64,000 nt of DNA from Squalus acanthias (Eukaryota), in NCBI GenBank assembly GCA_030390025.1, contig CM059430.1:73594001-73658000 (forward strand), given 5' to 3'. Of the stretch, positions 1 to 64,000 are shown piece after piece. The position numbers and the translations under genes were made by a program. The first letter of the stretch is position 1, and each line of letters begins with the position of its first letter. Below the pieces are notes generated by a model. It had not been told where the DNA came from and did no database searches. It saw only the letters and a program-made list of their open reading frames with translations.

Positions 1-149
1 TGATACATGACTCGGATAATGAAAACTCTTACTCTGATTTCAAAGTAAATGTAAGATTTATACCGCAATAAAATATATTAAACCTAACTGTCTGCGGGGT
101 TCTCCCTTGATCTCGCCATAAGATTAGCAGGAGGCCAGTGGAACCCCGA

Positions 150-1580
150 CAGAAATCATAGAATCTTAGAAATTTACAGCACAGAAGGAGGTAATTCGAC
201 CCATCTTGTCCGTACCGGCCGACAAGAGCTATCCAGCCTAATCCCACTTTCCAGCACTTGGTCCTTAGCATTGTAGGTTACAGCACTTCAAGTGCATATC
301 AAATAATTTTAAAATGTGATGAGGGTTTCTGACTCTACCACCCTTTCAGGCAGTGAGTTCCAGATCTCCTCCACTCTCAGGGTGAAGACATTTCTCCTGG
401 AATCCCATCTAAACCTCCTACCAATTAATTTAAATCTATGTTCCCTGGTTAACGTTCCCTCTGCTAAGGGAAATAGGTCCTTCCTATAGAGTCTATCCTG
501 GCCCCCCATAATTTTATACACTTCAATTAGGACTCCCCTCAGCCTCCTCTGTTCCAAAGAATACAACCCCAGCCTATCCAATCTTTCCTCTAACTAACAT
601 TCCCCAGCCCAGTCAACATCTTGGTAAATCTCCTCTGCACCCTTTCTGGTGCAATCACATTCTTCCTGTAATGCGGTGACCAGAACTGCACGCAGTATTC
701 TAGCTGCGGCCTAACTAGGGACTGATACAGTTCAAGCATAAACCCCCTGCTCTTATATCCAATGCCTCGCCTAATAAAGACAAGTATTCCGTATGCCTTC
801 TTAACGACGTTATCGAGCTGTCCTGCTACCTTCAGGGACCGGTGGACATGCATTCCAATGTCCCTCTGATCCTCTGCACTTCTCAGTCTCCTATCATTTA
901 TTGGGTAGTGCCTTGCCTTGTTTGTCCTCCCCAAATGCATTACCTCACACTTCTCCGGATTGAATTCCATTTGCCAATGTTCTGCCCACTTGAGCAGTCC
1001 ATTGATATCTTCCTGCAGTCTACAGCTTTCTTCTTCATTATCAACCACACGACCAATTTTTTTTATCATTTGCAAACATCTTAATCATGCTTCCTACATT
1101 CAAGTCCAAATCATTGATATATACCGCAAAAATGAAAGGACCTCTACTGAGCCCTGTAGAACAACACTGCGAATAATCTTCCAGTCACAAAACATCTTTC
1201 GATTAGTATCCTTTGTTTCCTGCCTCTGAGCCAATTTTGGATCCAACTTGTTACATTGCCTTGGATCCCATGGGCTTTTACTTTCGTGACCAGTCTGCAA
1301 TGCGGGACCTTATCAAAAGCCTTGCTAAAATTCGTATAGACTACATCAAACGTACAACCCTCATCGACCCTCCTTGTTACCTCCTCAAATAATTCAATCA
1401 AGTTAACCAGACCCGACCTTCCCTTAACAAATCCATGCTGACTGTCCCTGATTTATCCGTCCCTCAGAAATGTTTCCAATAATTTTTCCACCACCGAGTT
1501 TAGACTGACTGGACTTTAATTACTCCGTCTATTCCTTTGTCCCTTTTTAAAGAACGGTACCACGTTAGCAGTCCTCCAGT
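150..1580 (-). mobile_element. CR1 LINE, 3' portion of ORF2 (RT + C-terminus) and 3' UTR, disrupted
   Basis: ORFs 1144-1401, 590-1075 and 309-581 give [47 protein letters not shown] and LYSLEQRRLRG; short-repeat tail at ~150-170. Confidence 0.93.
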
Positions 1581-2496
1581 CCGGCAGAAACGGCAGCATC
1601 CCAAGTAAAAATAGTTTAAATGTCCATTTTTAATTCTCTACATTATTTCTCTAAAGTTTCGTTGATCTCAAGTCCGAACTGGTGGTACTAATCAGTGGAG
1701 ACCAATGAAATTGCAGTTCCATGATCTCTCGATAAACTGTGTCAATTGTCTTTGTATGAATGTTTCTCTCGCTCTCTCTGCTATTCTACTTCTGTATCCT
1801 TCTATATGCCCTTTTGTTGTCTGTCCTTAAGAAACTTTTGCTCTCTCTCGACACTCTTCTGCATCCTTCTCTGCATATATGCTCTATCACTTGCTGTTGA
1901 ATGTGATGGGTGGCACAGTGTGTTTTGAACGAGAAAATTATTAACTAGTGTGTGAAGGGTTCACGTTGGATGACTTTACAGGGACACTCTGGTCCTTACT
2001 GGCTCCTTTCCCAGCCTGAACCAAATTATTCATCCCTACACATATTACTGCTCTAGCTTCTCCCAAGTGTTCATTTTTCAACCGAAACCTTCCCTTTATA
2101 TCACTCCTCACTCAGATCCACACTGCCCTGCCTCATCCTTATTGAAATATCCACTCAGGCACTCAGTAATCCTGTCCACTTGCTCCCACTACAAGTACCC
2201 TGACATGCTTTTCAGCTGTTCTGCACTCCAATTCAATACTCCAGGCTATGGGGTGAGCGATCTAAGTCAAACTTAACCGTTGCTGGTTTCCTGCCTCTTA
2301 CTATTGTATGTCCTTTCTATTCCTTTCCTTCGATGATGACGTATTTGTTTTGAAAAGTTAAAATACTTTTGAAATAAGCTACGTCAGCATAAGCGAAGTT
2401 AAAAAAATGTCAGCTCTCTCTATCTAAGTCTCTATCCCTAATTTTGAATTTTATCTCTGTACGTAACATGAGCGATCGCGAATAGGGCGACCGTTT

Positions 2497-2618
2497 TCAC
2501 CTCAATCGATTTTCTGCTGATATGCTGTCACCCATTGTTAGCTGGGCGAGTAGATTTAAAATTACCCATTCTGATTCTGATGTCGCACATGTTAGTATGT
2601 AGAAATTCTGTCTCACAT
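2497..2618 (-). CDS. Candidate exon 4 (degenerate transmembrane/terminal exon) of the VJ-C1 IgSF gene
   Basis: Acceptor ttatttctcacag. Phase-1 reading (D)VRQNFYILTCATSESEWVILNLLAQLTMGDSISAENRLR* joins in frame to the C1 exon. Its end (ISAENRLR) resembles the TM exon at 63927-64000 (ISKLHRLR). Confidence 0.5.
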
Positions 2619-4072
2619 CTGTGAGAAATAAGCATTTACACTTTGTAAATGTCAAGCAAACATAATTCACAGTTAGCATTAGTGTGACTCGAAATTCAAA
2701 TAGTTATTCTTTTGAAAATTAAATTCATATTAAACTGAAGAAAGACTCTCTTCTGTCCTTTGGTTATACCTCTCTCTCCTGTGTAACTTTCTCTCTCTCA
2801 ATCTCTGACATAAGCCCCTCTCTCTCATGCTCTGTTCCTCAGCTTAATAACATTTCAAAATATAATGGACCCTTTTAAACCAAACACTAATATCGTTGTG
2901 CAATAATTTTTGTAATATTCCACTTCTCTCTCTCGCTCGCTCACAGACATATAAGCACACGCGTGGTCGAATCAAGTCAATCGCTTTTTAAACACTGAAT
3001 ATAAACTTTTCAACAATGAATATTCCAACATTTTTCCTTTTTCTGGATGAAGCAACAACTGACTAAATGCTGCAGAAAGACGGCACACGCTCAGAAAGTA
3101 TGACCTAAAGTCACCTCAGAGAGCGACAGGTTATGGCAAAATATAAATTCAAAGACTTTTTTTTCTGTGACTGGCTGAAGAAATCAAGTAATAGCTTAAT
3201 GAAGGCAATCAGAGATGGAAAGGCAACTCAATTAATACTTCTCATCATTCTTTACTGATATATCTGATTTTGAATTTGAATATTGTATAATCCCTTAATT
3301 TGACTTTAGATATTGAATTCGCTGCACTACAAATTGAAGATCAAAATTTTCGGTTTAAGAAACTGATAGATAAATTTGAGTGATTGCTCGGGAAAGCTAT
3401 TTTCTCACCAGATCGTGCCATTACAGGGTCACGTTTAAAAAGTAATTGTGTACAGCTTATTCCATTCGTCCGCCATAACTTCGGCGGAAGAGCCGTGAAA
3501 TTCAGTATTTCCTGGATTTCCTCGGCTATTCTCACGAAGATATGGCGGACGAGTGGTTGAGCCCGGCTGAAACTCATGTCAGTATAATTGTCAAGCGAGC
3601 GTCGAGTAATGTTAAACGGTGGCAAAAATATGACATCAATAAGTATTTTTTTTTAGACAGGAAGTGAACAGACATGAGAGGCGTTGATTTCCTCGGGAGC
3701 TGCCCCACCCACCGCATCAATCGCTCTTACATCGTTGGGTAATTAGCTTAATCCGGGGAGAAACTCATAACCAGCCTTTTTCAGCCCTTTTCATCCGCCT
3801 TTGCCCAAAATATTCCACCGATCTCCCATCGATGTTTGGACACCAGACCAGGGCAAGCTCTCATAAATCCCTGGTGAACAGTTTTAGTAAATATATTCAT
3901 ATAAACGGCTGAAGTCACTGAACAATTACATGTTGAACAGTTGGTTACCGATGACTGTTCGTCAGAACTGCTAATTACGTGAAGTGATTCATTTGTATCG
4001 TTGCTATTTGTATCAGTGACGCTGAAAGACATCAGGCGAATGACGGTGTATTCCCAAGACCTTAACTGAAAT

Positions 4073-4821
4073 GGGCCAGACATTCGGCTTTCCGGCTTCC
4101 TGCGGGTGCAAGCATCGCGAGCGTACTTGCCCACCGCGCCTGCTGTTGTGCTTTGGGCCCACGAGGACTTCGGGTCCTAGGCCTCCTCCAGCTGCCTGCG
4201 CGCAGTGCTTGTATATCAAAGCGGCATAGTGAGTTCGAAGCTTCCCCTGCGATCACGTGGGCCATGGAGAGCCAATCCTAGCAGGGCATTTTCATTCAAG
4301 ATTTGACAGGAAGTCCTGTCAAATCTATGAATAGAGATCGGCCCCAACACCACACTTAAACTTCAAATATTTTTTTTAAACTCACATTTTTAAAATAACT
4401 ATAAGTTAAATAAATTAACTAGTATAAATAAAAATGTAAATATTTGAAAAAAATAATTATACTTTTTAACTTTGCTAAAAATAAACTTACCTTTCTTTAA
4501 AGTATCTAAAAAAGATAAACCTTTGGAAACATTTTTAAAATTGTAATTAATGAACCACTTACATTGTTAAAAACTGGCCTTGCACCTCCTTTTTAAAAGC
4601 GCAGCTTCTTCATCCTTACCCTCCGAGAGAAACCTGAAAAAAAACCTGAAGTTCGCTGCCTGCGTGCAGCCTCTCCAACGCACCCGGTTCATCTCTGAAC
4701 CGCTCCCTTTAGGGTAACGGAAGTTCCGGTTTCCCGCGCATGCAGGAAACCGGTACTTCAGGTGGCATTATGGGTGAGTACACAGCGCGTACTCACCCGA
4801 CAACAGCCGAATTTTTGGCCC
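4073..4821. mobile_element. Harbinger-type MITE (non-autonomous DNA transposon)
   Basis: TIRs GGGCCAGACATTCGGCT / AGCCGAATTTTTGGCCC; 3-bp TSD AAT at 4070-4072 and 4822-4824; GC-rich ends, AT-rich core, no recognisable coding sequence. Confidence 0.85.
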
Positions 4822-4899
4822 AATATATTTAAAATTGAATTGTTTATAAGCGGGCACATTTGTGACTGCACGGAGGACTGCCACTTGGGAAAATCTGCG

Positions 4900-5742
4900 C
4901 CCATTGTGAGGGTTCCCGGGACGCATACAGTTCCGATACTTGCCCTCTCCAAACTCAGAGTGCCCAGGTATCCCAGAGGTGCATGCAGTTCGCAGCGTCC
5001 CTGTGATCACGTGGGCCATGGGGATCCAATCACAGAAGGAAATCTCCCTTCATACATTTGACAGGAAGTCTTGTCAAATATATGATGGCGATCAATGAAA
5101 AAACATAGTAAAACCGTAAATTTTTTTTTTTAAACTCATATTTTTAAAATAACTTGAAATTACAATAAATTAAGTATTTTAAACAAAAAATTATTTTTTT
5201 GAAAAATATCATTAAAGTATTTTATGGAGTTAAAAATCAACTTACATTTTTTAAAGTATTTTTAAATGATAAATCAATGAAATTATTTTAATACTTTTTT
5301 TTCAACTCTTATCCTGATAAAAGGCGGCCTTACGCCGGCTTTTGCCAGGCGTAAGAATGTTAATGGTTTTCTGCGTGCGGAGGGACTCCAAAAAGCGGAA
5401 CAAGCCGCTCGCAGAGGCCCTTCTCCAGGGCAGCCGGAGGATCTGTCAAGAGGATTCTTGTGAGAAGTCGCACAACACCAGGTTATAGTCCCACAGCTTT
5501 ATTTGAAAGCACAAGCTTGTGATTTCAAATAAAGCTGTTGTATTATAACCTGGTGTTGTGCGACTTCGCACATTTGTCCACCCCAGTCCAGCACCGGCAT
5601 TTCCACATGAAGATGATTCTTAACAGATCGGAAATGCCGGTCTTCAGCGCATGCGAATGCATGCCGGAAACCGGCATTTCCGATGTCCCTCCAGGTGGTT
5701 GCACAGCGCGTACCCACCAGTAGGGATCGGAATATCCGACCC
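4900..5742. mobile_element. Related MITE (left end unclear), interrupted by a palindromic insertion
   Basis: Shares blocks with 4073-4821 (gatcacgtgggccatgg, ttgacaggaagtcYtgtcaa); right end GGAATATCCGACCC followed by AAT. Confidence 0.6.
5460..5609. mobile_element. Short insertion containing a 104-bp palindrome (5464-5567), probably an inverted Penelope-like terminus
   Basis: Arms gaagtcgcacaacaccaggttata... / ...tataacctggtgttgtgcgacttc centred on AAGCTT; flanked by near-identical 12-bp direct repeats aagaggattctt (5448-5459) and aagatgattctt (5610-5621). Confidence 0.7.
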
Positions 5743-6342
5743 AATGTTACTGTCAGACTTTTATTACTGTATTCCAGCCATGCTACCAAAACGTATGCCG
5801 ATAATATATACTCTCTAAAAATCAATTTGATTGAAATGCTCTAATTCTGGGCAGGGTTTATCGACAATTAAGGTAATAAATGTTTCTATGGAAGCGAAAC
5901 TTCTTCCTTATTTCGCAAAATAATGAAAATTATATAAACAAATACGTCTATTATCACCCTTGTAGAACGATGCGCGTGCATAGCTGTCCTGTTCTTCTGC
6001 TTTAACTTGGGGGGACGATTCCGTAAACATCGCAGAAATGGCCTAAATCGCCATAGGCATTCCAGCCTGACTTTTGCAAGACGAGTGCGGGCCTTTGGTG
6101 AGAGACAATAAAGCAGTTTTCCTGCTTCTATTAACTGGAAAATGTCCTTGTTGTAAACTGCAGCGTGCGGATCATCTTTTACGTGTGTGGAATTGTCTCC
6201 CGAGATTCTTAAGGTTCGCACATGCTGACTAGAAACTCACACAGCACTAACTGGGGCCGGCCGTCCATGGTGACGGATCTCAGCAGAATCAAAATTTTCA
6301 GCAAAGACTGTGAAAAAACAGATAAACAAGCATGCCAATTAC

Positions 6343-6648
6343 CTGAAATGCCAATATGGTAATGAACACTGGCTCCAGTCTGGAGAGATATGTGTGATAC
6401 CTTACAGGTATAATTATTTCCGATCTGCAAAGGATCTGCTTCACTGAGATCACTGGAAACTTCAAAGTGTCCGGCTGGATTACGTTTTTTGATAGATTCC
6501 CTCCCGTTCGCGATTTCCAAACCATTTTTATACCAACTGATGTTCAGATTTTCCGGGAAAAACCAAGCCGTTTTACACTCAAGATTGAAAGAAGTCGAAG
6601 AATGTCTTCTAAATCCAATGGTAGAAATCTGCAACGGCGTCGGAGGAA
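6343..6648 (-). CDS. Exon 3: Ig C1-set domain of VJ-C1 IgSF gene
   Basis: (V)PPTPLQI...LECKTAWFFPENLNISWYKNG...GHFEVSSDL...YTCKVSHISL shows the C1 signatures CxxxxFxP, W and YxCxVxH. Acceptor ttttttttaaag, donor CAG|gtaatt, 306 nt, phase 1/1. Confidence 0.92.
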
Positions 6649-6689
6649 CTTTAAAAAAAATAGAAAAAGAATGTTATTTAAACTGAATG

Positions 6690-7040
6690 GGGGCGAAATT
6701 CCACTCGTTGGTTGACCTATGACATTGTGGTGAGCGGTTTGATACAAATGAGAGACTTCCGAACTGCTTCAGAGGTCAATTGAGAATGAACCATGTTGCG
6801 GTGGGAGAAAAGTCGCAAATAGTGCAGACTGGTTAAGGAAGGCAAGTTTCTTTCCCTGAAGGATATTAGTGAAGAAATAGCGTTTGATGGCAATCCACTT
6901 ACACCAGCATTTATTTCCATATATTTTCGAATAAGTTAAAATGTTTAAACTGCCAAATTGGGAGTTGAACGCACATTCCCTCTATTACTAGTCCAGGCTC
7001 TAGATTAGTAGTCCAGTAAAATAACAACTACTCCACAATG
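6690..7040 (-). mobile_element. Degenerate tRNA-derived SINE
   Basis: Minus strand starts with A-box-like gtggagtagttgtt and B-box-like gttcaactccc; body resembles 44790-44975. Confidence 0.55.
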
Positions 7041-8446
7041 TTGGTACATGAGGGAGAGAGAGAGAGATCCTAAAGTAGCAACAGTCGAGAGAGACCGAGA
7101 AAGAATTACAGATCACCCAAGCAACAGCCAGTTTTCAAGATTGAATAAAGCCTTGCGATGTTTATAGTATTGCAATACTTTAAATATCCCACTACATACC
7201 ATTGCAACCTACGGGAAAGGATGTTGATGTACGAGAACTGTAAAGTTGTGTGTGTGGGAATCGGCTAACAAAGGTGAATTGACCGGTGACTACCATATAA
7301 GGCAATGCAAGTTTCGGTATGATAAGGAGAAACAATGCATAAAAAGATGCTTTTGTGTTAGGAATCTGAGGAGAGAGGAATGTACAAGAATGAGCGCATG
7401 CCTAATTTAAAAACTGCTGACAAAACCCCTCTTGTAAATTGTGTTATACTCTGAAGAAATTATACTCGGCTTTTAGATTGTTTTCATTTAAAAGTAGAAA
7501 AAGTAAAGTGATTATAACGATTAGAGTGAATTCATTACTACTCGAATGAACAACAGATGCTGGTTTAAAACAACACACAGTACCGAATGCATTTGATTTT
7601 ATTCTTCCTCCTCAAATGCATTAACTCGTATCTCCAAAGTACATTTTATTGGACTTGTTCTCACCAATCTCCTAATATATTGATATTCTCAGGAAGTTGT
7701 GTTCAGTCTTCTAGATAGTGAAAACCCTATTTGGTCTGCTCTATCAATTTCCATAGTGCGGCCCTGCAAGTGGTGTTCTCCCAATTTATACCCGAGTAAT
7801 TAAATTCCACATCGTGACTATTGTCTGGGCCCGGTAATTCCACTTGGCTGCCGCATTTTCTGACATTAAGGGAAAAGTAAATCAAACGGGAAGTATAATT
7901 GACTGCACATCCGCCACCGCACTTGGTGGTCTTGGAGGAGAGCAAAAAGGCCGTTTGATACCTCGCCAGATTTTCCATTTCTTTGAAGTCAATGGGAAAG
8001 AAAATGGAGCGGAGTAAATGAACATTAGCGAAAGCCTTGTCCTGAGCTTGGCGCTGCCGCTCAAGACGGCATTCACTGTTGTGTTGGTAATAAATGAATA
8101 AATACATATTGACAAGTGGCTAGAGCTAATTAATAAAATGCTTTACTGCTGTAACCATTCTACCTTTTAATCAAATGTTTTCAGTGGATTGTTTATTATT
8201 GTCGGGGTCTCAAACATTTGGCATGCTTGGCTCCGGACCCGCATTGCCAGCGTTTGTTGTGCTGTAGGTGATACGCAGATGGCTTTATGGGTGGATTACC
8301 GTCCGTCTGCTTTAAACTCCGCGGAAGAGCAGCCGAAAATCCGAGAATCAAACAACGTGTTCCTTGCATAATTTTTTCATTGAAAACGCTCATATAATTG
8401 CTTGTTTCACGAGTTTCTATTACAGACTCCAGGCTATGGAAGTATT

Positions 8447-8940
8447 GGCCCAAAATTTGCGATCGGAGGCTTCCCGTGACCTGGTGGCCCGGAAGGTATG
8501 GAGACGTGCGATCCTGGGCCACTCGGGATACGCGCGGGCAGAGGCCCACGTATCCCAAGGGCGCTTGCGGTTCGCCAGCGCCCCTGGGATCACGTCGGTC
8601 GTCCTAAACAATAAAAGAAGGAAATAGCCATTCATAATTATGAGAGTTCTGTACGTACGGGTGTGCCATAAGTATGAATGGGGAATCACTTAAAAAATAC
8701 AGGAACACATGAAATAAACATTTTAAAATGTGCATCTTTAAAATTAATTAAAATGCGTAGTTATTAAATATTTTAAACAGAAATTTAATTTAAAAAAAAG
8801 TAATTTACATGTTTTAACGGGATTAAAAATAAGCTTACCTTATTGGCCAGGGTTTCAAATGTATAAAAGAGTGTTAACATTTTATTTTTCTATTTGTTAA
8901 AACTCTTATGTTGGTAAAAGCAGACCTTTAATGCAGGATT
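8447..8940. mobile_element. Truncated Harbinger-type MITE
   Basis: Begins ATT|GGCCCAAAATTTGCGATC like the other MITE termini; similar AT-rich core with cttacct motif; right TIR not found. Confidence 0.55.
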
Positions 8941-9079
8941 TAATTTCCCACTTACAACCTGGAGAACTGTCAATCTGTTTCTTGTGATTAGATTACGAGT
9001 GCAGCAGCAGTTTTCGTTCGATCTGATTTAAATGTTACTGCGAAAATATATATACGGGTGCTTGAGTAGATCCGGCAGA

Positions 9080-9172
9080 TCTGTCTATCTGTCTGTCTGT
9101 CTATCTATCTCCCTATATATCAATCTATGTATCTATCTATCTAGCCAGCTGGCTATTTAGGTAGCTATCTAT
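9080..9172 (+). repeat. Imperfect (TCTA/TCTG)n microsatellite
   Basis: Seen directly. Confidence 0.85.
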
Positions 9173-9204
9173 TCATAAAGTGATCCACTTATCTTTCATT
9201 ATCT

Positions 9205-10860
9205 CTGAGCGTTTGCAACAATCTTCAGTCAGACGTGCCGAGTGGATGATCCATATTTGCCTGCACCTGAGTTCCCCACCATCACAGAAGCCAGTCATCA
9301 GCCAATTCGATTCACTCCCTGTGATATCAAGAAACGGCTGAGTGCACTGGATATAGCAAAGTGTATGTGCTGAAGACTTGTGGTTCAGAACCAGCTGCGC
9401 TTCTGGCCAAGCTGTTCCAGTACAGCTACCACACTGGCATCTAATCGACAATGTGGAAAGCTGCCCAGGTTTGACCTGTCCACAAAAAGCAGGACAAATC
9501 CAACCCAGCCAATTACCACCCCTTCAGTCAACTGTCAACCTTTAGCAAAGTGATGGAAGGTGTCGTTGACAGTGCTATAAAGCGGCACTTACTCACTAAT
9601 AACCTGCTCACTTGAGCCCAGTTTGGGTTCCGACAGGACCACTCGGCACCAGACCACATTACAGCCTTGGTCCAAATATGGACAAAGGAGCTGAATTCAG
9701 AGCTGAGGTGAGAGTGACTGCACTTGACATCAAGGCAGCATTTGACCGAGTGCAGCATCAAGGTGCCCCAGTAAACTGAAGTCAATGGGAATCGCGGGAA
9801 ATATTCTCCACTGGCTGGAGTCATACCTAGCAGAAAGGAAGATGGTTTTGGTGTTTGCTGGTTAATCATCATAGCCCAAGGACATCGCTGCAGGAGTTCT
9901 TCAGGGCAGTGTCCTAGACCCACCCATCTTCAACTGCTTCATCAATGAAATTCCCTCCATCATCAGGTGAAAAATGGGGATGATCTTTGATGTCTGCACA
10001 GTGTTAAGTGAGTTTGCAACTCCTCAGATAATGAAGCAGTCCAGGCCCACATCCAACAAGACCTGAACATTCAGGCTTGGGCTGATAAGTGGCAGGTCAC
10101 ATTCGCGCTACATATGTGCCAGGCAATGACTGTCTCCAACAAGAGAGTCTAACCACCTCCCCGTGACATACAACGGCATTACCATCAACATTCAAGCGTC
10201 ACAATTGACCAGAAACTTAACTGGACAAGCCACATACATACTGTGGCAACAAGAGCAGGTCAGATGCTAGGTATTCTGCGGCGAGTAGCTCGCCTCCTGA
10301 CTTACCAAATCCTTTCCACCAGCAACAAGGCAAATATAAGGAGTGTGATGGAATACACTTCACTTGCCAGGATGAGTGCAGCTCCAACAATACACTAGAA
10401 GCGCGGCACCATCCATGATAAAGCAGTCCGCTTGATTGGCACCCCATTCACCAGCTTCAACTTTAACTGCCTCCTCCAGCGGCCTACCGTGGCTGCAGTG
10501 TGTACGATCAACAAGATGCCCTGCAGCAACTCGCCCAGGGTCCTTCGGCAGCACGTCCCAAAGCCCCGATCTCTAACATCTAGAAGGACAAGGGCAGCAG
10601 ATGCATGGGAACACCACCACCTCGAAGTTCCTCTCCAAGTCACACACAATCCTGACTTGGAAGTATATCGCCGTTCCTTAATGTCGCTGGATCAAAATCC
10701 TGGAACTCCCTCCCAAACAGCACTGTGGGAGTACCTTCACCGCACTGATTGCAGCGGTTCAAGAAAGCGGAAGATCACCACGTTCTCAAGTGCAATTAGA
10801 GATAGGCAATAAATATTGGCCTTGCCAGCGACGCCCAGATCACAAGAACGAATATAAAAA
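9205..10860 (+). mobile_element. 5'-truncated non-LTR retrotransposon (LINE family B; RT + 3' end), intronic and antisense to the IgSF gene
   Basis: Decayed RT motifs (LDIKAAFDRV, GVxQGSVL, WADKWQVTFA). 3' end ...ccagcgacgcccagatcacaagaacgaatataaaaa is shared with copies at ~22170, ~34860 and ~41100. Confidence 0.88.
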
Positions 10861-10901
10861 TATATATAAACGACATTTAGATTTAATGACACGCTACTTA
10901 C

Positions 10902-11210
10902 CATATACAACGAGTTCTGTACCGCATCTTTCAACAATCCTGGATGATAGAAATGTAATTCTACAGCAATAAACTCCAGCGTCCTGGAAACTCACATTAT
11001 GAAGATGGAGAAAATATGTTCCTTTCGGTAGTTTACGCGATTGCGTGCGTTTGTCGGAGGTTGAAGTGGAATTGAGCTTCATCCAAAAAACTGTTTGAAT
11101 GTCGGACGTCTTGAGGTCAGATACATTTCCTAGTAAGGTAACATTGCTGCCACTAATCACCGCAACAGAGTTAGGGAAGCGAGGGACATTCGGAGGGATA
11201 CCTTGAGCAG
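10902..11210 (-). CDS. Exon 2: Ig V-type (germline-joined VJ-like) domain
   Basis: (A)AQGIPP...GSNVTLLGNVS...VFWMK...YFLHLHNVSFQDAGVYCCRI...CGTELVVY shows W, LxL, DxGxYxC and a GTxLxV G-strand. Acceptor tttccaacag, donor G|gtaagt, 309 nt, phase 1/1. Confidence 0.88.
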
Positions 11211-11393
11211 CTGTTGGAAATAGATATTGCAGCACAATATTTACGTTGAACACAACATACCGAGAATTGTTTAATAACAGAACAAACCACAATACGATAA
11301 CATAAATGTAACAATTAAAGCACAATATTTGTACTTCTGTCGACAATTCTCTACTCCAGAACCGGAACTTGTTAAATAAAATTGGTCAAATAC

Positions 11394-11460
11394 CTGTGCA
11401 GAAAAAACCCAGTGTGGCACAATATTGAAATACGATATTCCGAACCAGAACTGAACCCAT
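11394..11460 (-). CDS. Exon 1: leader/signal peptide of VJ-C1 IgSF gene
   Basis: ATG at 11460-11458, MGSVLVRNIVFQYCATLGFFCT, donor CAG|gtattt; 67 nt, so phase 1 matches the V exon acceptor across a 183-nt intron. Confidence 0.75.
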
Positions 11461-11580
11461 AACTGAGTTGAGCTTTGCAGATACTCCGATCAGACAACTG
11501 TTAGAGTGACGTGTATGGTTGTAGCATATCTAAACTGTATTCCAGCCCGCTGATGATATGCGTTCTGCAGGGTGTCTGCT

Positions 11581-11916
11581 CCGCCCTCAACATGCCGTGT
11601 TTCGGTTCGCTGTTCCACTCCTGCAACTCTAACTCAGGAAATGTACACAGCACAGACAGAAAAAAATAGCTTTAAAATCCGCCTATGTTAGTGACTTTCA
11701 ATATCCTAAGAACAACAACTCGGCCCCGCTCAGTTAAAAATGAAGCAATATAAAATAATATCCCCAACGTAAGGTAGGGAAGCGATTTAGAACAGACAGC
11801 TGTGAACTGCTCGCGGAAGGTAAAGGAACTTTTAATTGAACAAGATCCCAATATACGGTGCAAGGAGGTAGTTTTCAGGAAGTATTTCCAAGGCAAAGTG
11901 TGAGCGAAAGTGAAAG
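11581..11916. promoter_or_regulatory. Putative proximal promoter: GC box, IRF/ISRE-like and ETS motifs
   Basis: CCGCCC (11581), GTTTCGGTTCG (11599), CAGGAAATG (11635) and GAAAGTGAAAG (11906-11916), within 460 bp upstream of the ATG. Motif matches only. Confidence 0.4.
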
Positions 11917-12630
11917 AGGGACAAGGGTGAGAGAGAGGGAGTGATAAGGGGAGCGGGCATGGCGGCTCACAGCGTGCGAGAGAAGAAGTGCGGGAAGATA
12001 TATCAAGAGGGCAAGTGGACGTAGTAGCTTTCTGATAAATTACAATTTTAATTTTATCTAAGCACGTTCTTCTGGAACATTTGTGTACACTGTTGCGTGT
12101 TAAGGCTGCACATTGTCCATTTAGGCGTCGCAATATGTGAAACCCATATGTTACGTGGTTCAGAGGTAAATCAGCTCAATGTTAGTCTGAAATACACCAT
12201 GAGCAGATAATTAACTGCTAGTGTATCATGAAACAACGTAGAAGTGTTTTAATTTGCACATGATTTAATCTGAGAATAAACACTTCAAATGGTTGACCTG
12301 CTGGTAAACAGCAAAACTTCAGGCAATTTGAGCAGCTCTTTGCATGCGGCCTTTACAAGACGCCTTAGATCATCACTATTCATTTTAGAAATAGATGTAT
12401 ATGTGACACACTGTTCATTGATGGGGTATTCAACATCAGATATCTTCACAGTGCATTAATCAAACTGGTTAGAGGGGGATATTCTCTTTTTTTCCCTCAC
12501 AATTCACCGGAAACACATTTGATAACAAGAAAAAAGATAGTCAGTAAAATTAATGTAGATTTTAAGTAAACACATTCAAATGACGCTCTGAACTCTTGCG
12601 AGATATGTAGACACGCATAATGAGAATAAT

Positions 12631-51800: not shown

Positions 51801-52670
51801 GACCGCACCACACGCTGGCCCGAGGCATTACCACTGACCTCTACCACCACCGCCGACATCGCCAGAGTCTTTGTCAGCACCTGCGTCGCACGGTTCGACG
51901 TCCCCTCCGACATGACGTCGGACAGAGGTCCGGAATTTACCTCTGAACTCTGGACCGCCGTCGCACTCAATCTCGGCGTGACCATTCAGCGCACCACAGC
52001 GTACCACCCCCAAGCCAACGGACTGTGTGAGCGGTTCCACAGATTCATGAAGGCATCTCTTTGAGCCAGCCTCCAGGATGGCGCCTGGACTGACCGACTT
52101 CTGTGGGTCCTCCTCAGCCTGCGCACCGCGGTTAAAGAAGACCTCCATGCATCGGCAGCAGAGCTTGTGTACGGTCAGCCGCTGCGCGTACCCGGCAAGT
52201 TCCTGCCCACCGCCACGACACCCTGGTCAGCCGATCAGCAACGCCACGACTTCGCCTCAACGGTGCTGCAGTTCGCCCTGGTGCCCATTGCCCGATACGG
52301 CGAATCCACCTCAGATGTCCCACTAAGCCTGCACCAGGCACGGTTTGTTTTTGTCCGACACGACGCCCACCGCGTACCCCTTCAACCCCCGTACGACGGG
52401 CCCTACAAGGTGCTACAGGTTTGGGACAAATTTTTCACCCTGCAAGTGTGCGAAAGGACCAAAAAAGTGTCGGTTGACCGACTCAAGCCAGCACACTCGG
52501 AGCCCGATGAGCAGCTCCCTGTAGCTCATCCACCTCCACGCGGCCGACCTGCCCTCAAGCCGGTTCACCCGGCTGCTCCATGCCCGGCCGTCCCACGTCC
52601 ACCGGCGGCCGACAAGAGCCACGCCGGCCGGCCCATCAGACCACCGCACCCTCTCGTCCACACCTCCTAA
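48868..52670 (+). pseudogene. Gypsy gag-pol (frameshifted, with stops)
   Basis: gag: VKLSEFWKKQPEAWFLQAE. PR: FLCNTG. RT: FSKVDLVRGYHQ, MPFGLKN, VHLDK. RNase H: TEAS, DHKPL. IN: HVDIVGP, TSDRG, NGLCERFHR, PPYDGPY. Confidence 0.95.
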
Positions 52671-52690
52671 GCGGATTCTGCGGGGAGCTG

Positions 52691-57707: not shown

Positions 57708-58869
57708 ATGTTAAAAGGCGATTCCGAAAATCGTCAGGAAAAGGAAAACTAGGAGAACAAGGTTATATAATGAAGTTATAATTTTGAATTATTGTTCCGG
57801 TAGAGACCACTTTAACAACCGGGGTAACTACAAACTTAACCCCAGCTGTACAGTATGCGACTCTGTTAATTAACCGCAGATGGAGCTCGCAATTCAATCA
57901 CGTTGACCGATCAGCTTTCCTTTCCTCTGGAAAACACTTTTGCTTGACCAAAGACTTGGAATTTCATGATTTTTTTAATGAATCAATCAGTAAAAAGTCA
58001 TGGAAAAAATACTTTTCAAACAGCTGTAGAAAGCTTTAGGGAAAGCACAATAACAAATATAAAGATTGGCAAATTACTCTTGTTAAATATATAATATGAT
58101 AAACATTTTTAAATTTATTCCAGAAATGTTACTTGAATCAAAGTATAACATTTGGCAATATTTCAGAAAGTAGCTGGAGAACTTTTGAATGACTCTCTTC
58201 GTTCCAGTGTCCACAGCAAAGGAGCAGATGCGGAGGTATTTTATCAACATGAACAGATAGAGGTGGCGCCTTACAACTATCTTCTGCATCAAGTATCACT
58301 TTCTTCTGAAACACTGATGCGAGAAAATGTAAAACAAATAATATTTATCTATTTCCCTCAACTGAAGCTCTCAATGATCAGCGACTTGATCAGCAGAAGA
58401 TTCCATTGTCACTTTTCTTTGGTTACACGTCTGTGGGTTTCAAACACCCTTTTCTGCTTTCTGAACTGAAGCTGCCCACACACTATGTGCTCCTCCTGCC
58501 CTTTCGGTTTCGTCTATGTCTTCTGACAGACAAAGTCCAGCGCACAGTAGGTCAGCCTTTCTTAAGCTAACATTTTCGGAATCTGTAGTAGTGTTCAGAA
58601 ATATCGTTAATATTCTGTCTTCAACAGCGTAAAGATTGCTACCTCAAACAACTTCGGATATTCCAGCATAGGGTGAGGCAAATGTGACGTGCGAGTATCA
58701 ATCCAAACTTCTCTCACCCTCCTGAAGCGGCTCCTGCATACACTCCTGCACCTCAACCCTGAGCCTCGTTATCACTTTAAACTCAACATACTTCGGGATC
58801 ATATTTGTGTATACACGATAATGATAGTGAAATAAAAACGTAAACGTCAGCTTAGAAAGATTCGTGTAA

Positions 58870-59685
58870 ATATGAAACTGATTCCACTGGCAGAAGATTC
58901 GCTAAACTGATTTAAGTCATTTGGCAAAAGAGCCAGATGTGAGATGATGAGATTGTTTTTTTTTTAACCAGCAAGTTATTATGATTTAGAATGCATTGCC
59001 TGAAAGATTGGTGGAAGCAGATTCAGTGGTACATTTCAAAAGGAAATTAACTATACGCTTGAAAAGGCGAACAAAAGCATGGTTATAGAGAAAGAGAAAG
59101 GGAGTGTGAATAATTTTGAAAGCTTTTCAAAGAAGTGGCACTGGTACGATGGGCCGAGTGGCCCCCTTCTGTGCTGAAACATTCTATCATTCTATGATGT
59201 GTGTGTGAACAAGGAGCACATGAAGTGTCTAAAATGAGTGTATTTATCGTATGCAATACCAGTGTGAGATAACACATAATGTTAAGGGGAAGTTTAATAG
59301 AGGCTTTCAAGATCATAAAGGGTTGTGTTAGAGTAAATAAGGAGAAACTATTTCCACTGAGAAAATAATTGGTAACAGGTGGACACAGATATAAAGTAAT
59401 TGTCGGAAGAAGTGGAGGCGAGCTGATGAAAAAAATGTTTATGTAATAAGTTCTTATGATTTGGAATGCACTGCCTAAAATAGTATTGGAAAGCGATCCA
59501 ATTGTAACTTTCAAAACGAAATTGAGTAACTAATTGATGGGTGAAAATTGCAGGGCTATGGGGACAGAGAAGAGGGGTGTGACTAATTACACATCTATTT
59601 CAAAGTGCCGACAGAGGCAGAATGGATCCAATGGCCTCCTTCTATTTTGTTAGATTATATGATTCTATATGATTCTGTAATACGT
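58870..59685 (+). mobile_element. Two tandem CR1 3' ends
   Basis: Two ggcc(c)cctt/ggcctcctt...attctatgat tails ending near 59200 and 59680. Confidence 0.8.
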
Positions 59686-60409
59686 CTGTTAGCAAGGACC
59701 ACATGAAGAATCAAAGAGAAGTATATTTCTCGTATGCCATACCAGTGTGAAATAGCGGAGCTTGTCAACAGCTTCAGCAGTGGAATATTATATACATTTG
59801 GATTGATTGCATTTATTGAGCTCAGCGATAGCTTTATGAACGAACAGTATATTGGTTACAGGCAGGGAAGATATCTCATGTAGCTGAAAATTTTGATTGG
59901 CAATGCGATGCAGCTGTGCTTCTCGCAGAATACTGGGAGTGTGAAAGTTGGAGGCGTTTTCTCTCTTTGGTGCCGATTTTAACTGTTTCAAATCGGCACC
60001 AATGAGCCAATAATGGCCTCAAAATGGGGTTGGTAAAATTACCGCCCTTTTACGCAGACATTCTATCGCTGGCTGGAGAGAGCACCTGTCTACTCAGTGA
60101 GTAAGTCCTTTTATGATGCAAATTGGGGTCCTCTGCCTTACAAAGGACCAGTAGTTTTATTTTATGATATAGCAGGGCGGAGCTTGAGCCGTGTACTCGG
60201 CAAACAATTGTACTGGCTAAATGGCGACATTTTTTGCAAAATGGTCGTATTGCTCATTCTGGGTCCATAAAAATAATCTGTGGCGCCGCTCCGGTGGCTT
60301 TCCGCATCCAAGATCGCGACCCCCAGCCCAAGACTTACATTGTTGCCGCTGGGTTTTTTCTGTCCCCTTGATACTACAACAGCCTGAATCCGGTCTAACT
60401 GATACGATA

Positions 60410-60721
60410 GCAAAATACTGCAGATGCTGGAAATCTGAAATAACAACAGAAAACGCTGGAAAAACTCAGCAGGCCAGGCAGCATCCGTGGAGAGAGAAAG
60501 AGAGTTAACGTTTCAGGTCGATGACCTTTCGTCAGAACTGTGAAGAGCCGGAAATCTAATAGATTTAAGGCCAGAGTAAAGCTGGGAAAAGGGGGAGGGG
60601 ATAAAAGAACAAAGGGGGAGATGAAGAGACATTAAGAGACATTAAGAGATATGCAAGGCTAGAGGTGGTGTTAATGTGACAGATTAAGGCTGAAAGAAGT
60701 GTGAAATCCACTGGCAGAATG
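60410..60721 (-). mobile_element. Penelope-like terminal repeat
   Basis: Reverse-complement similarity to 56215-56500. Confidence 0.82.
60503..60539 (-). ncRNA. Minimal type I hammerhead ribozyme motif
   Basis: AGUU-CUGACGA-A-AGGUC-auc-GACCU-GAAA-CG-UU-AACU. Confidence 0.78.
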
Positions 60722-61439
60722 CATCGACATGTCCATCTAGGACGTTTACCTAGCCGCTTCTATTGAAAGCCAAATCATGACAATGGCTCCGGGCACTGCA
60801 ATGCTGGACTGGGCCGTCCGCTGACCAAACCGTTAATATTTAACCCAAAGGGTGCACCAACGATTATGCAGTAAACTGGTGTTGGAAACAGTTGTGGAAG
60901 GCAATGGTTAAGTTTTTTCTGAGTGCATGCCTGTCAGTTCACTGCTTAAGACTCGCAAAATGATGTTAGACACATATCAGTGGAATTTAGCATTTTAACT
61001 TTAAGTTGAACCATAGGTAAAATGTAAATCTCACTGTGAATGTACTATCATATTCCATCAGTATTTCATAAATATGAAATCGGTTGTTCGTTTCCAATTG
61101 GCATAATCTCCATAATTGCTGATCAGTCCAAATGGAAGATGAGAGAGATGGTGTTGCGAGACACTAACGATCACAGAATCGATGGCGTTGAAAGTTGTAA
61201 AACTGATTAAGTGTTACGATGAAATTGCGTTGTGGCGCAAGACGAATTTCACGCGATAATTCGAAAGCAACGAGGAGTAAATTGGTCTGGGGAGTACTCT
61301 TAATGTGCAAGAAAAGCAGGCTGTTACAACTAAGACATTCATTATATACCTGTCTATAAAAGTTTCCACACCAGCGATTTTAGGCTAACTGGCCTGTAAT
61401 GTCATGGTTTATACCTCTCCCCGTTTCAAAACAGCGGTG

Positions 61440-61960
61440 TACAGTTTCCAATCCTCCTGTCCTCTGGCACCAGCCTAAATCTATGGAGACTTGCAAGATT
61501 GTGGACAGAGCCTTTGAAATTTTCACTCTTATTAGAATGCATCCCATCCGAACCAGGTGACTTTTGTACTTTGAGGACTGCCCACGTTTTAATCCCTTCT
61601 GTTTATCTATTTTAATCCTACCCGATATCGCTGCTACTTTCTCCTACAGTGTAGGATCCTCTTCTCTAGTGAAGAAAGTTTAAATTACTAATTTAATACC
61701 TCAGTCATGCCTTCAGCCTCCACAGAAATATTTCCTTTTAGGCCCCTCATTGGTCTCATCCTTCCGCTGATTATCTTTTACTACTGATATATTTATAAAA
61801 TACATTCTTGTTTAATTTTAATTTAGCCGCTAATCTATTCTCATAGTGTCCTTTTTAGATCTCCTCTACCCGCATTAACCCTCTCCGTTTCTTTATGAAA
61901 GAACTCAGTCAGGTTAGTCAAATACGATTTGCCTTTATGAAATCCGTGCTGACTTTCACT
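61440..61960 (-). mobile_element. CR1 ORF2 fragments
   Basis: Similar to the KSPG..GMH and QHGF.KGKS regions of other copies. Confidence 0.65.
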
Positions 61961-62579
61961 TATTAGCTCACTCTTTCAAAAAGCCAATGAAGATTATTGA
62001 TATGTCTTTTCTTCATGAAAAGTATTAAATCAATTCAAATCGTTGCTGCACGCGTGGGCTACATCTTGATATTATTCAGAGGAAAATGTTGCCTTTTTGA
62101 ATACACACGATGGAGGAGCGGTTTAACATTCACTCATCACATAGATTATCTAAATGGAGGCTATTAGTATCAGCAATTCCGAAAAGATGATGGATAGTTT
62201 TCCTGCTAAGAAGTCATTGACGTATTACCCAGATTTCCGCCAATGTTTTCCCGATCTCCATCCTTAATTTTGGCAGGAATTTGCCAGAAAACCCAAGAAG
62301 TAGAGTAGATAGTTAAAACCCGCTATTTCCTCGTTTTTGTGTGGAATTTGTCAATCTTCCACCGAACGTGCAGTGGTGGGTAAAATATCAAATAATTCCA
62401 GGGTCTACAGGGACATGGTCAACAGAGGAGCAACAAGAATTACCGATCACACTGCTGCAGCTGCACCAGATTCTAAATGATCTATTTGGGAACAACAAAA
62501 TAATTTGGCCCGAAGAACAAGGTCATGGCACTTGAGTCCATTCACAAGCTGCAAGATATCAGCGCCCTTCAGCGGGAGT

Positions 62580-63430
62580 TCTATTGAAAATCTGAGGACA
62601 TGGCGAAAAGGGCTAGAACCACTGCTTTTCTTGATGTATAACAATGACTTGAACGTTGTTGTACAAGGCACAATTTCAAAATTTGCAGATGGCACAACAT
62701 TTGGAAGTATGGTGAAAAGTGAGGAGGAAAGTGATAGACTTCAGGAATAGACAAGTTGGTGAAATGGGCGGAAAAATGGCAGATGCAATTTAACGCAGAG
62801 AAGTGTGCAGTGATACATTTTGGTTGAAACAATGAGGAGAGGACATATAAACTAAAAGGTACAATCCTGAAGGGGGTGCATGAACAGAGAGACAAGGGGA
62901 TATGTGTGCACGAATCGTTGAAGTTGGCAGGGCAGGTTGAGAAAGCAGTTAAAACGCTTCCGGGATACTGGGCTTCATAAATAGAGGTATAGAGTATAAA
63001 AGTGTGGAAATTATGATGAACCTGTGTAAAACACTGGTTCAGCCCCAACTGGAGTACTGTGAGCAATTCTGGGCCCAACGCTTTAGGAAGGATGTGAAGG
63101 CCTTAGACAGGGTGCAGAAAAAAATTCCGAGAATGATTACAGGAATAAGGTGATTGGCAAAAGAACCAAATGCGACGGAAGAAAAAACGTTTTAACAAAG
63201 CCACTGGATAAGATCGGGAATGCAGTGCTTGAAAGGGTGGTGGAGGCAGATTCAATCACGACTTCGAAACCGGAGTTAGATAAGTAGCTGAAGGAATGAA
63301 ATTTGCATTTTTACGAGGAAAGGGCGGGGTAGTGGGATTTGCTGAAGTGCTCTTGCAGAGAGCCGGCACTTGCTCGACTGGCCTAAAGGCCGCCTTCCGT
63401 GCCGTAACCATTCTATGATTCTATGATTCT
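62580..63430 (+). mobile_element. CR1 3' portion
   Basis: PLLFLMYNNDL..ISKFADGT; tail attctatgattctatgattct. Confidence 0.9.
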
Positions 63431-63926
63431 GAGCAGCGTTTAAATCAATTTCTCAAGTTTTTGGGCAAAAGGAAGCAGAATCAAGCAGAAATTCTCTCCC
63501 TAAGTCGCTGTCAGTCTGTAATCGAACGTTGTCCGACTTTTATGTGCGATTAATAAATTGGGAGGAGAAATTCCAATGAGTTCTAAAGAACCTCCACGTA
63601 AAAATTGCAGCACCCCAAGCAAAACTACAAACAGCTATTTTGATCCAGTTATGCCCTTTCTCTGGTTGTTGTTCTATATTTCGTCTGAAGTTAGGGCGAG
63701 AGACTGGCACGATTCCCATGACATTCCCAAGATATTTCATAGCCCTTCTGTCCAAGGTGAGCCGGCTGCATAAATTTCTGAACAACAGAAGAATTGGCAA
63801 CTTTTCAAAAATCTGATCGAATTTGTTTATCTTCACTCGTACATTGTTTTCTTCTCTTTATGGTTAATTTAATATTTTGCAGGCGCAACACATCATGAAT
63901 ACACGGGAGAAAATTAGAATACTTAC

Positions 63927-64000
63927 CTCTTAATCTATGCAATTTTGAGATTTTCATTATAGTGAACACCAATATTAGAATTAACAGTCCAACACCGAGC
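63927..64000 (-). CDS. Transmembrane exon (5'-truncated by window edge) of a probable paralogous type I membrane IgSF gene
   Basis: LGVGLLILILVFTIMKISKLHRLR: hydrophobic run then basic stop-transfer residues; consensus donor GAG|gtaagt, phase 1. Confidence 0.7.

Follow-up and report, generated by a model that had tools for sequence, protein, structure and literature searches.

An anchor-less, probably decaying gene within a large tandem family of germline-joined VJ-C1 genes in Squalus acanthias, likely paired innate immune receptors

What is a gene that carries an antibody-like V domain, already joined to its J-like strand in the germline, together with a C1 domain, and to which family does it belong? 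The window analysed here is a stretch of 64,000 nucleotides of Squalus acanthias (C6:73594001-73658000, C6 being the contig that bears it). An earlier sequence-only reading saw in it a non-rearranging, split-leader VJ plus C1 gene of a poorly characterised, probably chondrichthyan family. With a probability of roughly 0.7, we consider it an anchor-less, probably decaying member of a family of germline VJ-C1 genes, arranged in tandem and over 120 in number, that are likely paired innate immune receptors.

Exons of the window copy

Three exons of the window copy are real, those for the leader, the pre-joined VJ and the C1 domain (Table 1). The four minus-strand exons first drawn (67, 309, 306 and 122 nt) have the GT-AG signals and phase-1 introns claimed for them, present as sequence, and splice into the announced open frame of 267 aa with six N-glycosylation sequons. 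On the Pfam V-set profile, whose cut-off is 26 bits, the V exon reaches 34.7 bits, and on the C1-set profile, with a cut-off of 21, the C1 exon reaches 38.3 bits; the J-like strand lies inside the V exon. The claimed absence of RSS also holds, since none of the 97 family V matches examined has an RSS-like motif at a distance of 300 nt or less; the scan gave one loose match, in an intron of window positions 1-12500, the background being 22 matches across 1.28 Mb. The sequence-only reading was right to call the gene non-rearranging. What that reading did not notice is that the B-strand cysteine of the V domain is changed to glycine, the F-strand cysteine being retained. In addition, an arginine replaces the first glycine of the G-x-G motif, whose X position holds an extra cysteine, and the V exon has an in-frame deletion of 12 nt relative to a paralogue that we call paralogue B.

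The proposed terminal exon fared differently. It falls within the C1-TM intron, the real TM and cytoplasmic exons were found outside the window, and the segment is probably intron rather than exon. It gave no match at E<=1 among the proteins compared, no poly(A) hexamer occurs within 600 nt of it, and its best 19-residue hydropathy is 1.04 versus 2.81 for a real TM exon. Its AG acceptor is AT in 3 of 11 copies, one of them an otherwise intact gene. We also sought a short extra exon between the TM exon and cytoplasmic exon 1 and found none convincing. Read depth from three same-species runs of guessed type fell on repeats, with exon bins near zero, a pattern uninformative about expression. In the neighbouring copy, foreign, repeat-like sequence splits the TM exon near 63930-64000 and a cytoplasmic exon has stops near 58460-58590; past the window edge its V is shortened by 16 nt and its C1 has a stop.

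Table 1. Features of the window copy and its neighbour (window positions, or positions on C6 where so marked)
Feature	Position	Strand	Evidence or remark
Phase-1 leader exon of 67 nt with split signal peptide	11394..11460	-	14 homologous leaders, GT conserved
Pre-joined VJ exon, short C'-D region	10902..11210	-	V-set match, V tree
C1-set exon, open, both cysteines and Trp kept	6343..6648	-	C1-set match; 91% identity to paralogue B (C6:73.876 Mb)
Terminal exon of the sequence-only reading; probably intronic, behind cryptic AG	2497..2618	-	Protein comparison, hydropathy, copy alignment
C1-to-TM intron, continues past window end	1..6342	-	Alignment to other copies
TM exon, beyond window base 1	C6:73593939-73593888	-	52 nt vs 114 nt normal
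Cytoplasmic exon 1, ITIM-like LTYGTV	C6:73590094-73589976	-	Splice sites predicted
Last exon, ITIM-like LTYCAL and IVYEQV	from C6:73583595	-	Splice sites predicted
Neighbouring tandem copy, 3' end, approximate	58430..64000	-	Homology to family exons

The tandem family and its relation to known receptors

The sequence-only reading missed that the gene stands, judging from its homologues, in a family of more than 120 members with putative activating and inhibitory forms, and also that this copy is without its membrane anchor and stands in a branch most of whose copies are broken. With 150 of 323 candidates scored, 125 of 146 C1 matches lie on C6 and represent 123 distinct exons, a lower bound, in four groups at 57.5, 61.2-62.8, 67.4-68.2 and 72.5-76.9 Mb. 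A census of the 1.28 Mb fetched around family C1 matches found a V at most 9 kb upstream in 92 of 103 C1 matches, 68 of the 103 being open with an open V upstream, and 42 ITIM-repeat matches. The tryptophan is kept in all 76 full open V exons, the B-strand cysteine in 66 and the G-x-G-[TS]-x-L-x-[VI] motif in 63. Intact members consist of a leader, one pre-joined VJ, one C1 and a TM, with either a tail of two to four tyrosine motifs (ITIM-type, although only one to three per tail follow the strict consensus) or a short tail-less anchor with arginine; the arginine type makes up 10 of 71 TM matches, with a stop within about 11 codons in 8 of the 10. The suspected chondrichthyan family was borne out: protein database members, named SIRP-, B7-H6- or tapasin-like, come from sharks, rays and chimaera, and those with a contig record share one common contig per species. 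The family dates back at least to the shark-chimaera split. A protein database search with the window C1 gave no match among 26 candidates, and a representative-protein search was dominated by long multi-Ig proteins. We found no description of the family in the full-text literature searched, and related papers or supplements may mention it.

Four pairs of members with opposite anchors (activating/neutral) have V domains identical at 100/100, 96/103, 91/98 and 77/88 positions (88-100%), and ITIM exons were found for the neutral partner in three of them; likewise, within one species, database member P0001 has an ITIM tail and P0002 an arginine anchor. Candidate ITAM adaptors for such anchors are of the FcR-gamma or CD3-zeta type. 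In the parts of PMC3533184 covered here, paired receptors are clustered genes whose inhibitory (ITIM) and activating (short tail, TM Arg/Lys) members have ectodomains that closely resemble each other; they are expressed on overlapping immune cells and couple to SHP or an adaptor. The family shows the clustering, with at least 123 C1 exons on C6, and the matched ectodomains on both kinds of anchor; the window copy, having no anchor, lacks the latter trait. Because antibody-like, non-rearranging heads sit on 'off'- or 'on'-type tails, we read the cluster as likely a paired innate immune-receptor system. By extension from the covered parts of PMC3533184, ITIM forms would recruit SHP-1/2 and dampen the leukocyte when V binds a self ligand; an ITAM adaptor would associate with the arginine forms, which would activate on a pathogen mimic or altered ligand. 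These roles (expression, ligand, adaptor, signalling) are predicted by analogy. Turnover of the array is likely driven by unequal crossover and the exchange of exons. V changes faster than C1 in the 29 closest pairs that do not overlap (pN/pS 0.80 versus 0.61, Fisher p=0.012); overall V pN/pS is below 1 (p=0.03, purifying selection), so positive selection on V is not demonstrated.

An unlikely alternative is that the family belongs to a known one, as a chondrichthyan expansion of SIRP (or of B7-H6/NCR3LG1) relocated to another chromosome. Many members bear RefSeq-type names of the form SIRP-alpha-like or NCR3LG1-like, one full-length member has two SIRP-alpha-named Atlas clusters as its nearest (0.96), and the best matches among solved structures include SIRP-alpha and SIRP-gamma. 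The four-tyrosine tail resembles that of SIRP-alpha. However, SIRP has a V followed by two C1 domains and an activating anchor with lysine, while full-length family members have one C1, activating anchors have arginine, and there are more than 120 genes. NSFL1C (SEP domain), which we take to flank human SIRP, has no counterpart beside the cluster: SEP-domain matches, a single marker, occur only on C8 and C11. RAG1, presumably on the same human chromosome arm as NCR3LG1 (11p-type block) and hence a distant proxy for it, is on C10; the C6 cluster, away from both, lies near NUP93 and around VAC14. Besides, immunoglobulin light-chain V-C pairs match the family profile at least as well as SIRP does, and bony-vertebrate SIRP/B7-H6 is absent from 33 profile matches (32 chondrichthyan) in a search that needs shared words. 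The B7-H6 ectodomain is V-C1, a layout that the family has too, along with automatic names. NKp30 is a single V with a G-x-G-T strand and a TM arginine; the strand and the arginine recur in the family, but its members carry V plus C1. We know of neither NKp30 nor B7-H6 as an ITIM/Arg paired array. What the family does share with SIRP (SIRP-alpha/beta/gamma; PDB 2WNG, 4I2X) is a J-like V in one exon (SIRP is listed among the joined-VJ genes in the covered parts of PMC11599192), a C1-set domain, a tyrosine-motif tail, paired inhibitory and activating forms and a tandem cluster (PMC3533184, in the parts covered). By analogy, it probably works like SIRP or NITR.

The NITRs of teleosts and holosteans resemble the family in their single-exon VJ, large clusters, pseudogenes and inhibitory, activating and secreted forms, the bowfin activating form having a TM arginine; they differ in the second domain, which in NITRs is of the I type, bears a J of its own and conserves six cysteines (bioRxiv 10.1101/2021.06.11.448072, in the parts covered), whereas that of the family is a Pfam C1-set domain with two cysteines. 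In holosteans, NITR genes are syntenic with runx1/donson. UrIg and UrIg2 (PDB 9DMX) are also non-rearranging, with a split-leader VJ and then C1, but their C1 domains number 3 in UrIg and 9-11 in shark UrIg2, against one in the family; their loci are in the MHC or beside IgH/TCR-alpha-delta, and the parts of PMC12227049 covered report neither ITIM nor paired forms. The nearest non-chondrichthyan V domains recovered belong to reptile multi-V receptors of turtle, lizard and viper (P0021, P0029, P0149, P0086), which score 45-61 bits versus at least 83 for family members, have several tandem V-like domains instead of V and one C1, and stand separate in the V tree.

The locus itself, whose synteny rests on marker families, lacks the linkage to MHC or Ig/TCR genes known for UrIg. 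As for the MHC linkage described for NKp30 in the covered parts of PMC10751288, three PBX matches are placed, none on C6, and one is unplaced; none of 28 proteasome matches and none of the best 150 V-set matches is on C6, and Ig/TCR V segments are on C29, C911, C449 and other contigs. Exons on C26 are presumably MHC class I-like alpha-3, a label assigned from motifs. On the suggested check for synteny with MHC paralogons, no placed MHC-paralogon or antigen-receptor marker tested is at the cluster. In the 160 kb past the cluster end, no gene was identifiable among the matches listed. FTO is on an unplaced contig.

The lost anchor of the window copy

In the branch of the window copy, the B-strand cysteine was lost and a G-strand cysteine gained at the position of the UrIg2 interchain bond, Cys114, just before G-T in the G strand (PMC12227049, in the parts covered). 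The V of this branch, from which the window copy comes, dropped the canonical disulfide. Only 4 of the 17 copies of this branch are intact, and 13 are broken or incomplete; paralogue B (C6:73.86-73.88 Mb) has a complete frame of 372 aa. Trees and identity indicate a mosaic ancestry, the window V being nearest to a copy at 74.12 Mb and its C1 to the one at 73.88 Mb. Since none of 60 database family V domains, a limited sample, shares the B-strand loss, the branch is seen only in the Squalus acanthias genome. AlphaFold gives Ig V-like folds for a canonical family V (pLDDT 83) and for a cysteine-swapped one (pLDDT 76). When paralogue B's cysteine-swapped V was modelled as a homodimer, the prediction scored 0.02, which neither supports nor opposes a dimer.

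The TM exon of the window copy has a frameshifting deletion of 62 nt, unique among 11 aligned TM exons, which takes out the hydrophobic core and brings a stop 11 codons into the exon; owing to this frameshift, the copy is without membrane anchoring. With these 62 nt lost, the reading frame would end after 238 aa, which would make the transcript a likely target of nonsense-mediated decay, or else the TM exon would be skipped, giving an unanchored product of 330 aa. The deletion is known from one assembly, without reads, and the cytoplasmic splice model is short and predicted. The copy is either a decaying gene or a secreted decoy. Its open leader, V and C1, its intact splice sites and ITIM exons and the dN/dS of its C1 against paralogue B (0.46; 8 vs 5 changes) speak against decay, which is thus unproved.

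We hold it unlikely that the window copy functions as a secreted decoy, a soluble VJ-C1 protein that would compete for the ligand of its membrane-bound sister receptors, a role that LILRA3 or secreted NITRs may have. Its leader, V and C1 exons have open frames and good splice sites, and either splice would yield an in-frame soluble product, but the deletion shifts the frame and is private to this copy. The stop comes before two more junctions, and a stop codon upstream of further exon junctions is a classic signal for nonsense-mediated decay. Moreover, the 13 damaged copies of its branch are damaged in unrelated ways, and the V dN/dS of about 1.3 against the two nearest copies fits absent constraint. 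Other paired families do include soluble members (PMC3533184; bioRxiv 10.1101/2021.06.11.448072; parts covered). It is quite improbable that the deletion in the TM exon stems from faulty assembly or is confined to a single haplotype, the gene being normally an intact inhibitory receptor: every other exon is intact, including those of the three ITIM-like motifs, but the deletion is clean, bounded by short microhomology and outside simple repeats, and lesions are common in the branch.

Rearranging receptors and meaning for cartilaginous fishes

The sequence-only reading had hinted at closeness to the ancestor of the RAG-split receptors, and an extant near relative of the unsplit VJ-C1 gene in which the RAG transposon landed would indeed have, as the family does, a split leader, a single-exon VJ and the VJ-C1 layout, as in the two-domain precursor drawn in PMC12227049 (parts covered). 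The family is also old, and among three alignments listed, light-chain-type V-C pairs give its V-C1 profile the highest scores per stretch (63.8 and 62.3 bits). The hint finds no support here, and we give this idea little credit, as the V domains of Ig and TCR form a clade (100/99) with the family outside, and the placed markers tested are missing from the locus. Besides, in the family V the J phenylalanine/tryptophan is absent and C'-C'' is shortened, and by fold NCAM I-set domains and VNAR match it best, within about 1 Z unit. In both trees, which were built without SIRP, NKp30 and B7-H6 sequences, the family occupies one side of a branch (V 84/95, C1 98/93; the V tree has 104 columns and a bootstrap for family monophyly of only 84%). 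A germline-joined immunoglobulin light-chain cluster, suggested by the pre-joined VJ with a single C1 and by several database members named 'immunoglobulin lambda-1 light chain-like', is almost certainly wrong: the V tree, the C1 tree, where joined IgL is set apart, and the AU test (p=0.001 for the family with joined IgL, p=0.002 for the branch of the window copy) exclude, under the models used, the nesting that had been named as a refuting outcome, the joined IgL of this genome is on C13, and the family has TM and ITIM exons.

To our knowledge, it is still to be settled which germline receptors control NK-like and myeloid cells in sharks. The covered parts of PMC6795676 describe NITRs from ray-finned fish and name none from cartilaginous fish. 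Tentatively, and as a whole more doubtful than not, cartilaginous fishes may have their own large natural-killer/myeloid receptor complex, apart from the MHC, SIRP and Ig/TCR loci, comprising upwards of 120 unsplit VJ-C1 genes, some inhibitory, some activating and some secreted, kept since the shark-chimaera split; it would be an independent lineage of the two-domain antigen-receptor-precursor gene type, in which one branch swapped its V disulfide for a chain-linking, UrIg2-like G-strand cysteine and the window copy is a secreted decoy. The window copy is a poor representative of the family, paralogue B and the pair at 72.58/72.68 Mb being better test objects. To the non-rearranging relatives of antigen receptors the family adds a VJ-C1 group outside the tested MHC and Ig/TCR regions, which bears on where such genes were located before RAG. 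The cluster is a very large and concrete candidate receptor set with matched on/off pairs, and therefore its ligands, adaptors and cell types are directly testable.

A VJ-C1 gene cluster on contig CM059430.1

Searched with the C1 exon of the window gene, the 3.7-Gb genome of Squalus acanthias (assembly G000) gave at least 146 matches, at least 125 of them on contig CM059430.1 (C6), where at least 123 distinct C1 exons remained after two split matches were merged; these counts are lower bounds, with the best 150 of 323 candidates scored. Around most of these C6 exons, a census of 1.28 Mb of DNA found 97 V, 103 C1 and 71 transmembrane (TM) matches, and at 68 of the 103 C1 matches an open C1 has an open V upstream. 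The C-strand Trp is kept in 76/76 full open V exons, the F-strand Cys in 71, the B-strand Cys in 66 and the motif G-x-G-[TS]-x-L-x-[VI] in 63. The sequence-only reading saw no RSS at the exon edges of the window gene, and no RSS-like motif lies within 300 nt of any of the 97 V matches (heptamer with at most one and nonamer with at most two mismatches to the consensus; background 22 in 1.28 Mb).

The window, G000:C6:73594001-73658000, also holds a lone degenerate C1-exon relic of the family on the opposite strand (36995-37168, plus; 39% identity, one stop, E 0.003), frameshifted pol-like frames of a presumed Ty3/gypsy-type retrotransposon (48896-52700, plus) and many presumed LINE fragments. 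Immediately past the final cluster gene there is a long degenerate tandem repeat array (G000:C6:76.96-76.99 Mb).

Homologues were found in the sharks Heptranchias, Heterodontus, Scyliorhinus, Hemiscyllium, Chiloscyllium, Cetorhinus, Carcharodon and Mustelus, and also in Mobula, Hemitrygon, Hypanus, Leucoraja, Amblyraja and Callorhinchus; within each species, all those with a contig record lie on a single contig. In a word-limited search, 32 of 33 full-length profile matches were chondrichthyan, and under a V profile made from family sequences no member scored below 83 bits, against 61 for the highest-scoring outsider, the values of training members being inflated. Single members are already in public annotation under automatic names that disagree with one another (SIRP-alpha-like, NCR3LG1-like, tapasin-related, Ig lambda-like, CD276). 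Within the papers that a full-text literature search covered, none describing the C6 cluster was found. By term counts, the elephant-shark paper (PMC3964593) has no SIRP in its main text and neither SIRP nor ITIM in its supplement.

Human NUP93, VAC14 and GPI are genes of 16q and 19q13.1, and their dogfish counterparts lie on C6 (see table). SEP-domain genes were found on C8 and C11, RAG1 on C10 and PBX on C14, C15, C22 and unplaced contigs, while none of 28 proteasome matches and none of the best 150 V-set matches fell on C6. No linkage of the locus to the tested SIRP, MHC-paralogon or Ig/TCR markers is therefore apparent, on the basis of single markers rather than full microsynteny. At G000:C4:147629506-147630066 lies a proteasome-subunit copy that lacks introns and contains a stop, probably a retrocopy.

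Positions of features on contig C6 of assembly G000
Feature	Position	Strand	Remark
GPI	C6:23.6 Mb		
NUP93-family exons	C6:52.6 Mb		
C1 exons	C6:57.5 Mb		1
C1 exons	C6:61-63 Mb		39
VAC14	C6:66.6 Mb		between two sub-clusters
C1 exons	C6:67-68 Mb		14
C1 exons	C6:72-77 Mb		69
Intact branch copies	C6:72.49, 73.00 Mb		Arg-type
Intact branch copies	C6:73.42, 73.88 Mb		inhibitory-type
TM exon, window gene	G000:C6:73593939-73593888	minus	52 nt vs 114 nt in paralogue B

Phylogenetic and structural placement

The V tree has 103 rows, of which 58 are genomic V (from the 76 open ones, thinned at 90% identity), 23 come from database members and 22 are outgroups. In it, a branch (84/95) sets the family off from all other rows, and the Ig and TCR V of this genome make up a group of their own (100/99). 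In the C1 tree (63 rows, 36 of them genomic, 17 from databases and 10 outgroups) the family (98/93) is separate from IgL, IgH, class I-like alpha-3 and a further VJ-C1 family; outgroup labels in both trees are presumed from motifs. Grouping with germline-joined IgL, one of the outcomes that the sequence-only reading had named as refuting it, was rejected by AU tests on 40 rows (p=0.001 and 0.002). The trees have few columns, long branches meet in them and SIRP, NKp30, B7-H6 and UrIg were left out; deeper relations are not inferred. The high-ranking matches among solved structures include antibody V-C pairs, SIRP-alpha and UrIg2; in the Atlas, SIRP-alpha clusters rank first for a full-length member (0.96) and generic V fragments for the V alone.

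Other loci were noted. What we take to be germline-joined IgH VDJ on G000:C29 and germline-joined IgL clusters at C13:52.9-54.8 Mb served as outgroups. Of 12 weak C1 matches at G000:C26:32.7-38.4 Mb, the two examined are near-identical exons, presumably MHC class I-like alpha-3. A further single-exon VJ gene on G000:C262, long-branched, groups with Ig V domains and has no C1 match within 10 kb downstream; it is probably multi-copy, and V-set matches of full length that resemble it lie on C3676 and C2944. A second pre-joined VJ + C1 family (G000:C5:145.18-145.38 Mb, at least two copies) groups with the C6 family in neither tree and carries E-I-P-P-P ahead of G-x-G-T, a motif ascribed to CD28H-like genes in PMC11599192.

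The window gene and its cysteine-swapped branch

The four segments proposed by the sequence-only reading splice at GT-AG, phase 1 junctions into a 267-aa frame with six sequons. The HMM check bore out a V-type domain followed by a C1-set domain, as the 309-nt exon matches Pfam V-set (34.7 bits) and the 306-nt exon C1-set (38.3 bits), both exceeding the curated cut-offs, and the J-like strand does lie inside the V exon. Splicing, domains, J strand, RSS absence and a chondrichthyan family stand; the fourth exon (2618-2497) probably does not, since it sits in the C1-TM intron and the true 3' exons lie past window base 1. Its conservation (about 90%) is no better than that of the flanking intron, its AG acceptor is lost in 3/11 copies, one copy has a premature stop and its hydrophobicity is too low for a TM. 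It had no match among the proteins compared in this analysis, nor was a poly(A) hexamer found nearby.

Beyond base 1, three exons were located by means of the tails of database homologues, one for the TM segment and two with tyrosine motifs. A 62-nt deletion takes out the hydrophobic core of the TM exon, and predicted splicing that includes the remainder gives a stop after 238 aa; paralogue B, an intact relative at C6 73.86-73.88 Mb, has a complete predicted leader-V-C1-TM-tail frame of 372 aa. By these predictions the window copy has lost its anchor, and it is ordinary debris or a decoy. Its V is also abnormal: the B-strand Cys is Gly, the G-x-G strand reads R-C-G and the exon is 12 nt shorter than in the nearest intact paralogue. 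We consider that the copy is probably decaying (about 0.7). Skipping the TM exon would leave a 330-aa frame without an anchor, and use as a secreted decoy is a doubtful second reading. That the deletion, present in one of 11 aligned TM exons, is an assembly or haplotype artefact seems quite improbable.

The window gene belongs to a branch in which the B-strand Cys is lost and a G-strand Cys gained: Cys occupies X of G-x-G in 8/10 open V without the B-strand Cys vs 0/66 with it. The swap probably arose once, because swapped V exons form a single long-branched clade (100/100); no case was found among 60 database V domains of the family. The branch C1 is sister to a subfamily common to Heptranchias, Heterodontus and rays (93/92). 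Judged in part by stop flags of leader, V and C1 plus indel counts, the pseudogene load of the branch is high: 13/17 copies are broken or incomplete, the window gene among them, and 4/17 are lesion-free in leader, V, C1 and TM. Open V exons that lack only the F-strand Cys, or both canonical cysteines, occur at G000:C6:74.35-74.49, 72.49, 73.20 and 74.27 Mb.

In the predicted model, the swapped V retains an Ig V fold (pLDDT 76). In the UrIg2 crystal, as described in PMC12227049, G strands are joined by interchain disulfides at 112 and 114; the second of these Cys, immediately before G-T, aligns with the gained Cys. For this reason we prefer to see intact branch members as putative disulfide-linked homodimers, the competing option being an F-G bond within one chain. 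At G000:C6:72.99-73.00 Mb, an intact chimera of cysteine-swapped V, other-subfamily C1 and arginine anchor points to exon exchange.

Two anchor types and the paired-receptor pattern

Arg-type TM exons (10/71 matches) form a distinct type marked by an N-terminal Arg and a final acidic residue, with a stop within about 11 codons in 8/10; the other 61 are mixed, many neutral and some with Arg near the start. ITIM-repeat exons gave 42 matches. Four of the closest gene pairs each unite an Arg-type with a neutral-anchor gene (V identities 100/100, 96/103, 91/98 and 77/88); three neutral partners have ITIM exons, and none was found in the short stretch examined for the fourth. In sequence terms the family fits the definition of paired receptors outlined in PMC3533184. 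Across 29 non-overlapping closest pairs, pN/pS was 0.80 in V vs 0.61 in C1 (difference p=0.012), both below 1, and therefore the binding domain is less constrained, with no claim of positive selection.

Joined-VJ innate receptors are known (CD79, NITR, SIRP, CD8, NKp30 and PRARP, as listed in a section of PMC11599192), and VJ-C1 genes are discussed in parts of PMC10751288. NITR clusters, as described in bioRxiv 10.1101/2021.06.11.448072, show a matching logic of inhibitory, activating and secreted forms, with an I domain. Architecture, cluster, two anchor types and shared V domains are established at the sequence level, and the family is likely a variant of paired receptors of the SIRP/NITR kind. 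ITIM forms would signal inhibition via SHP phosphatases and Arg forms activation via an ITAM adaptor, and an arms race between self-ligand and pathogen mimic may drive duplication and exon exchange. The family offers a candidate, open to testing, for the NK/myeloid receptor complex of sharks.
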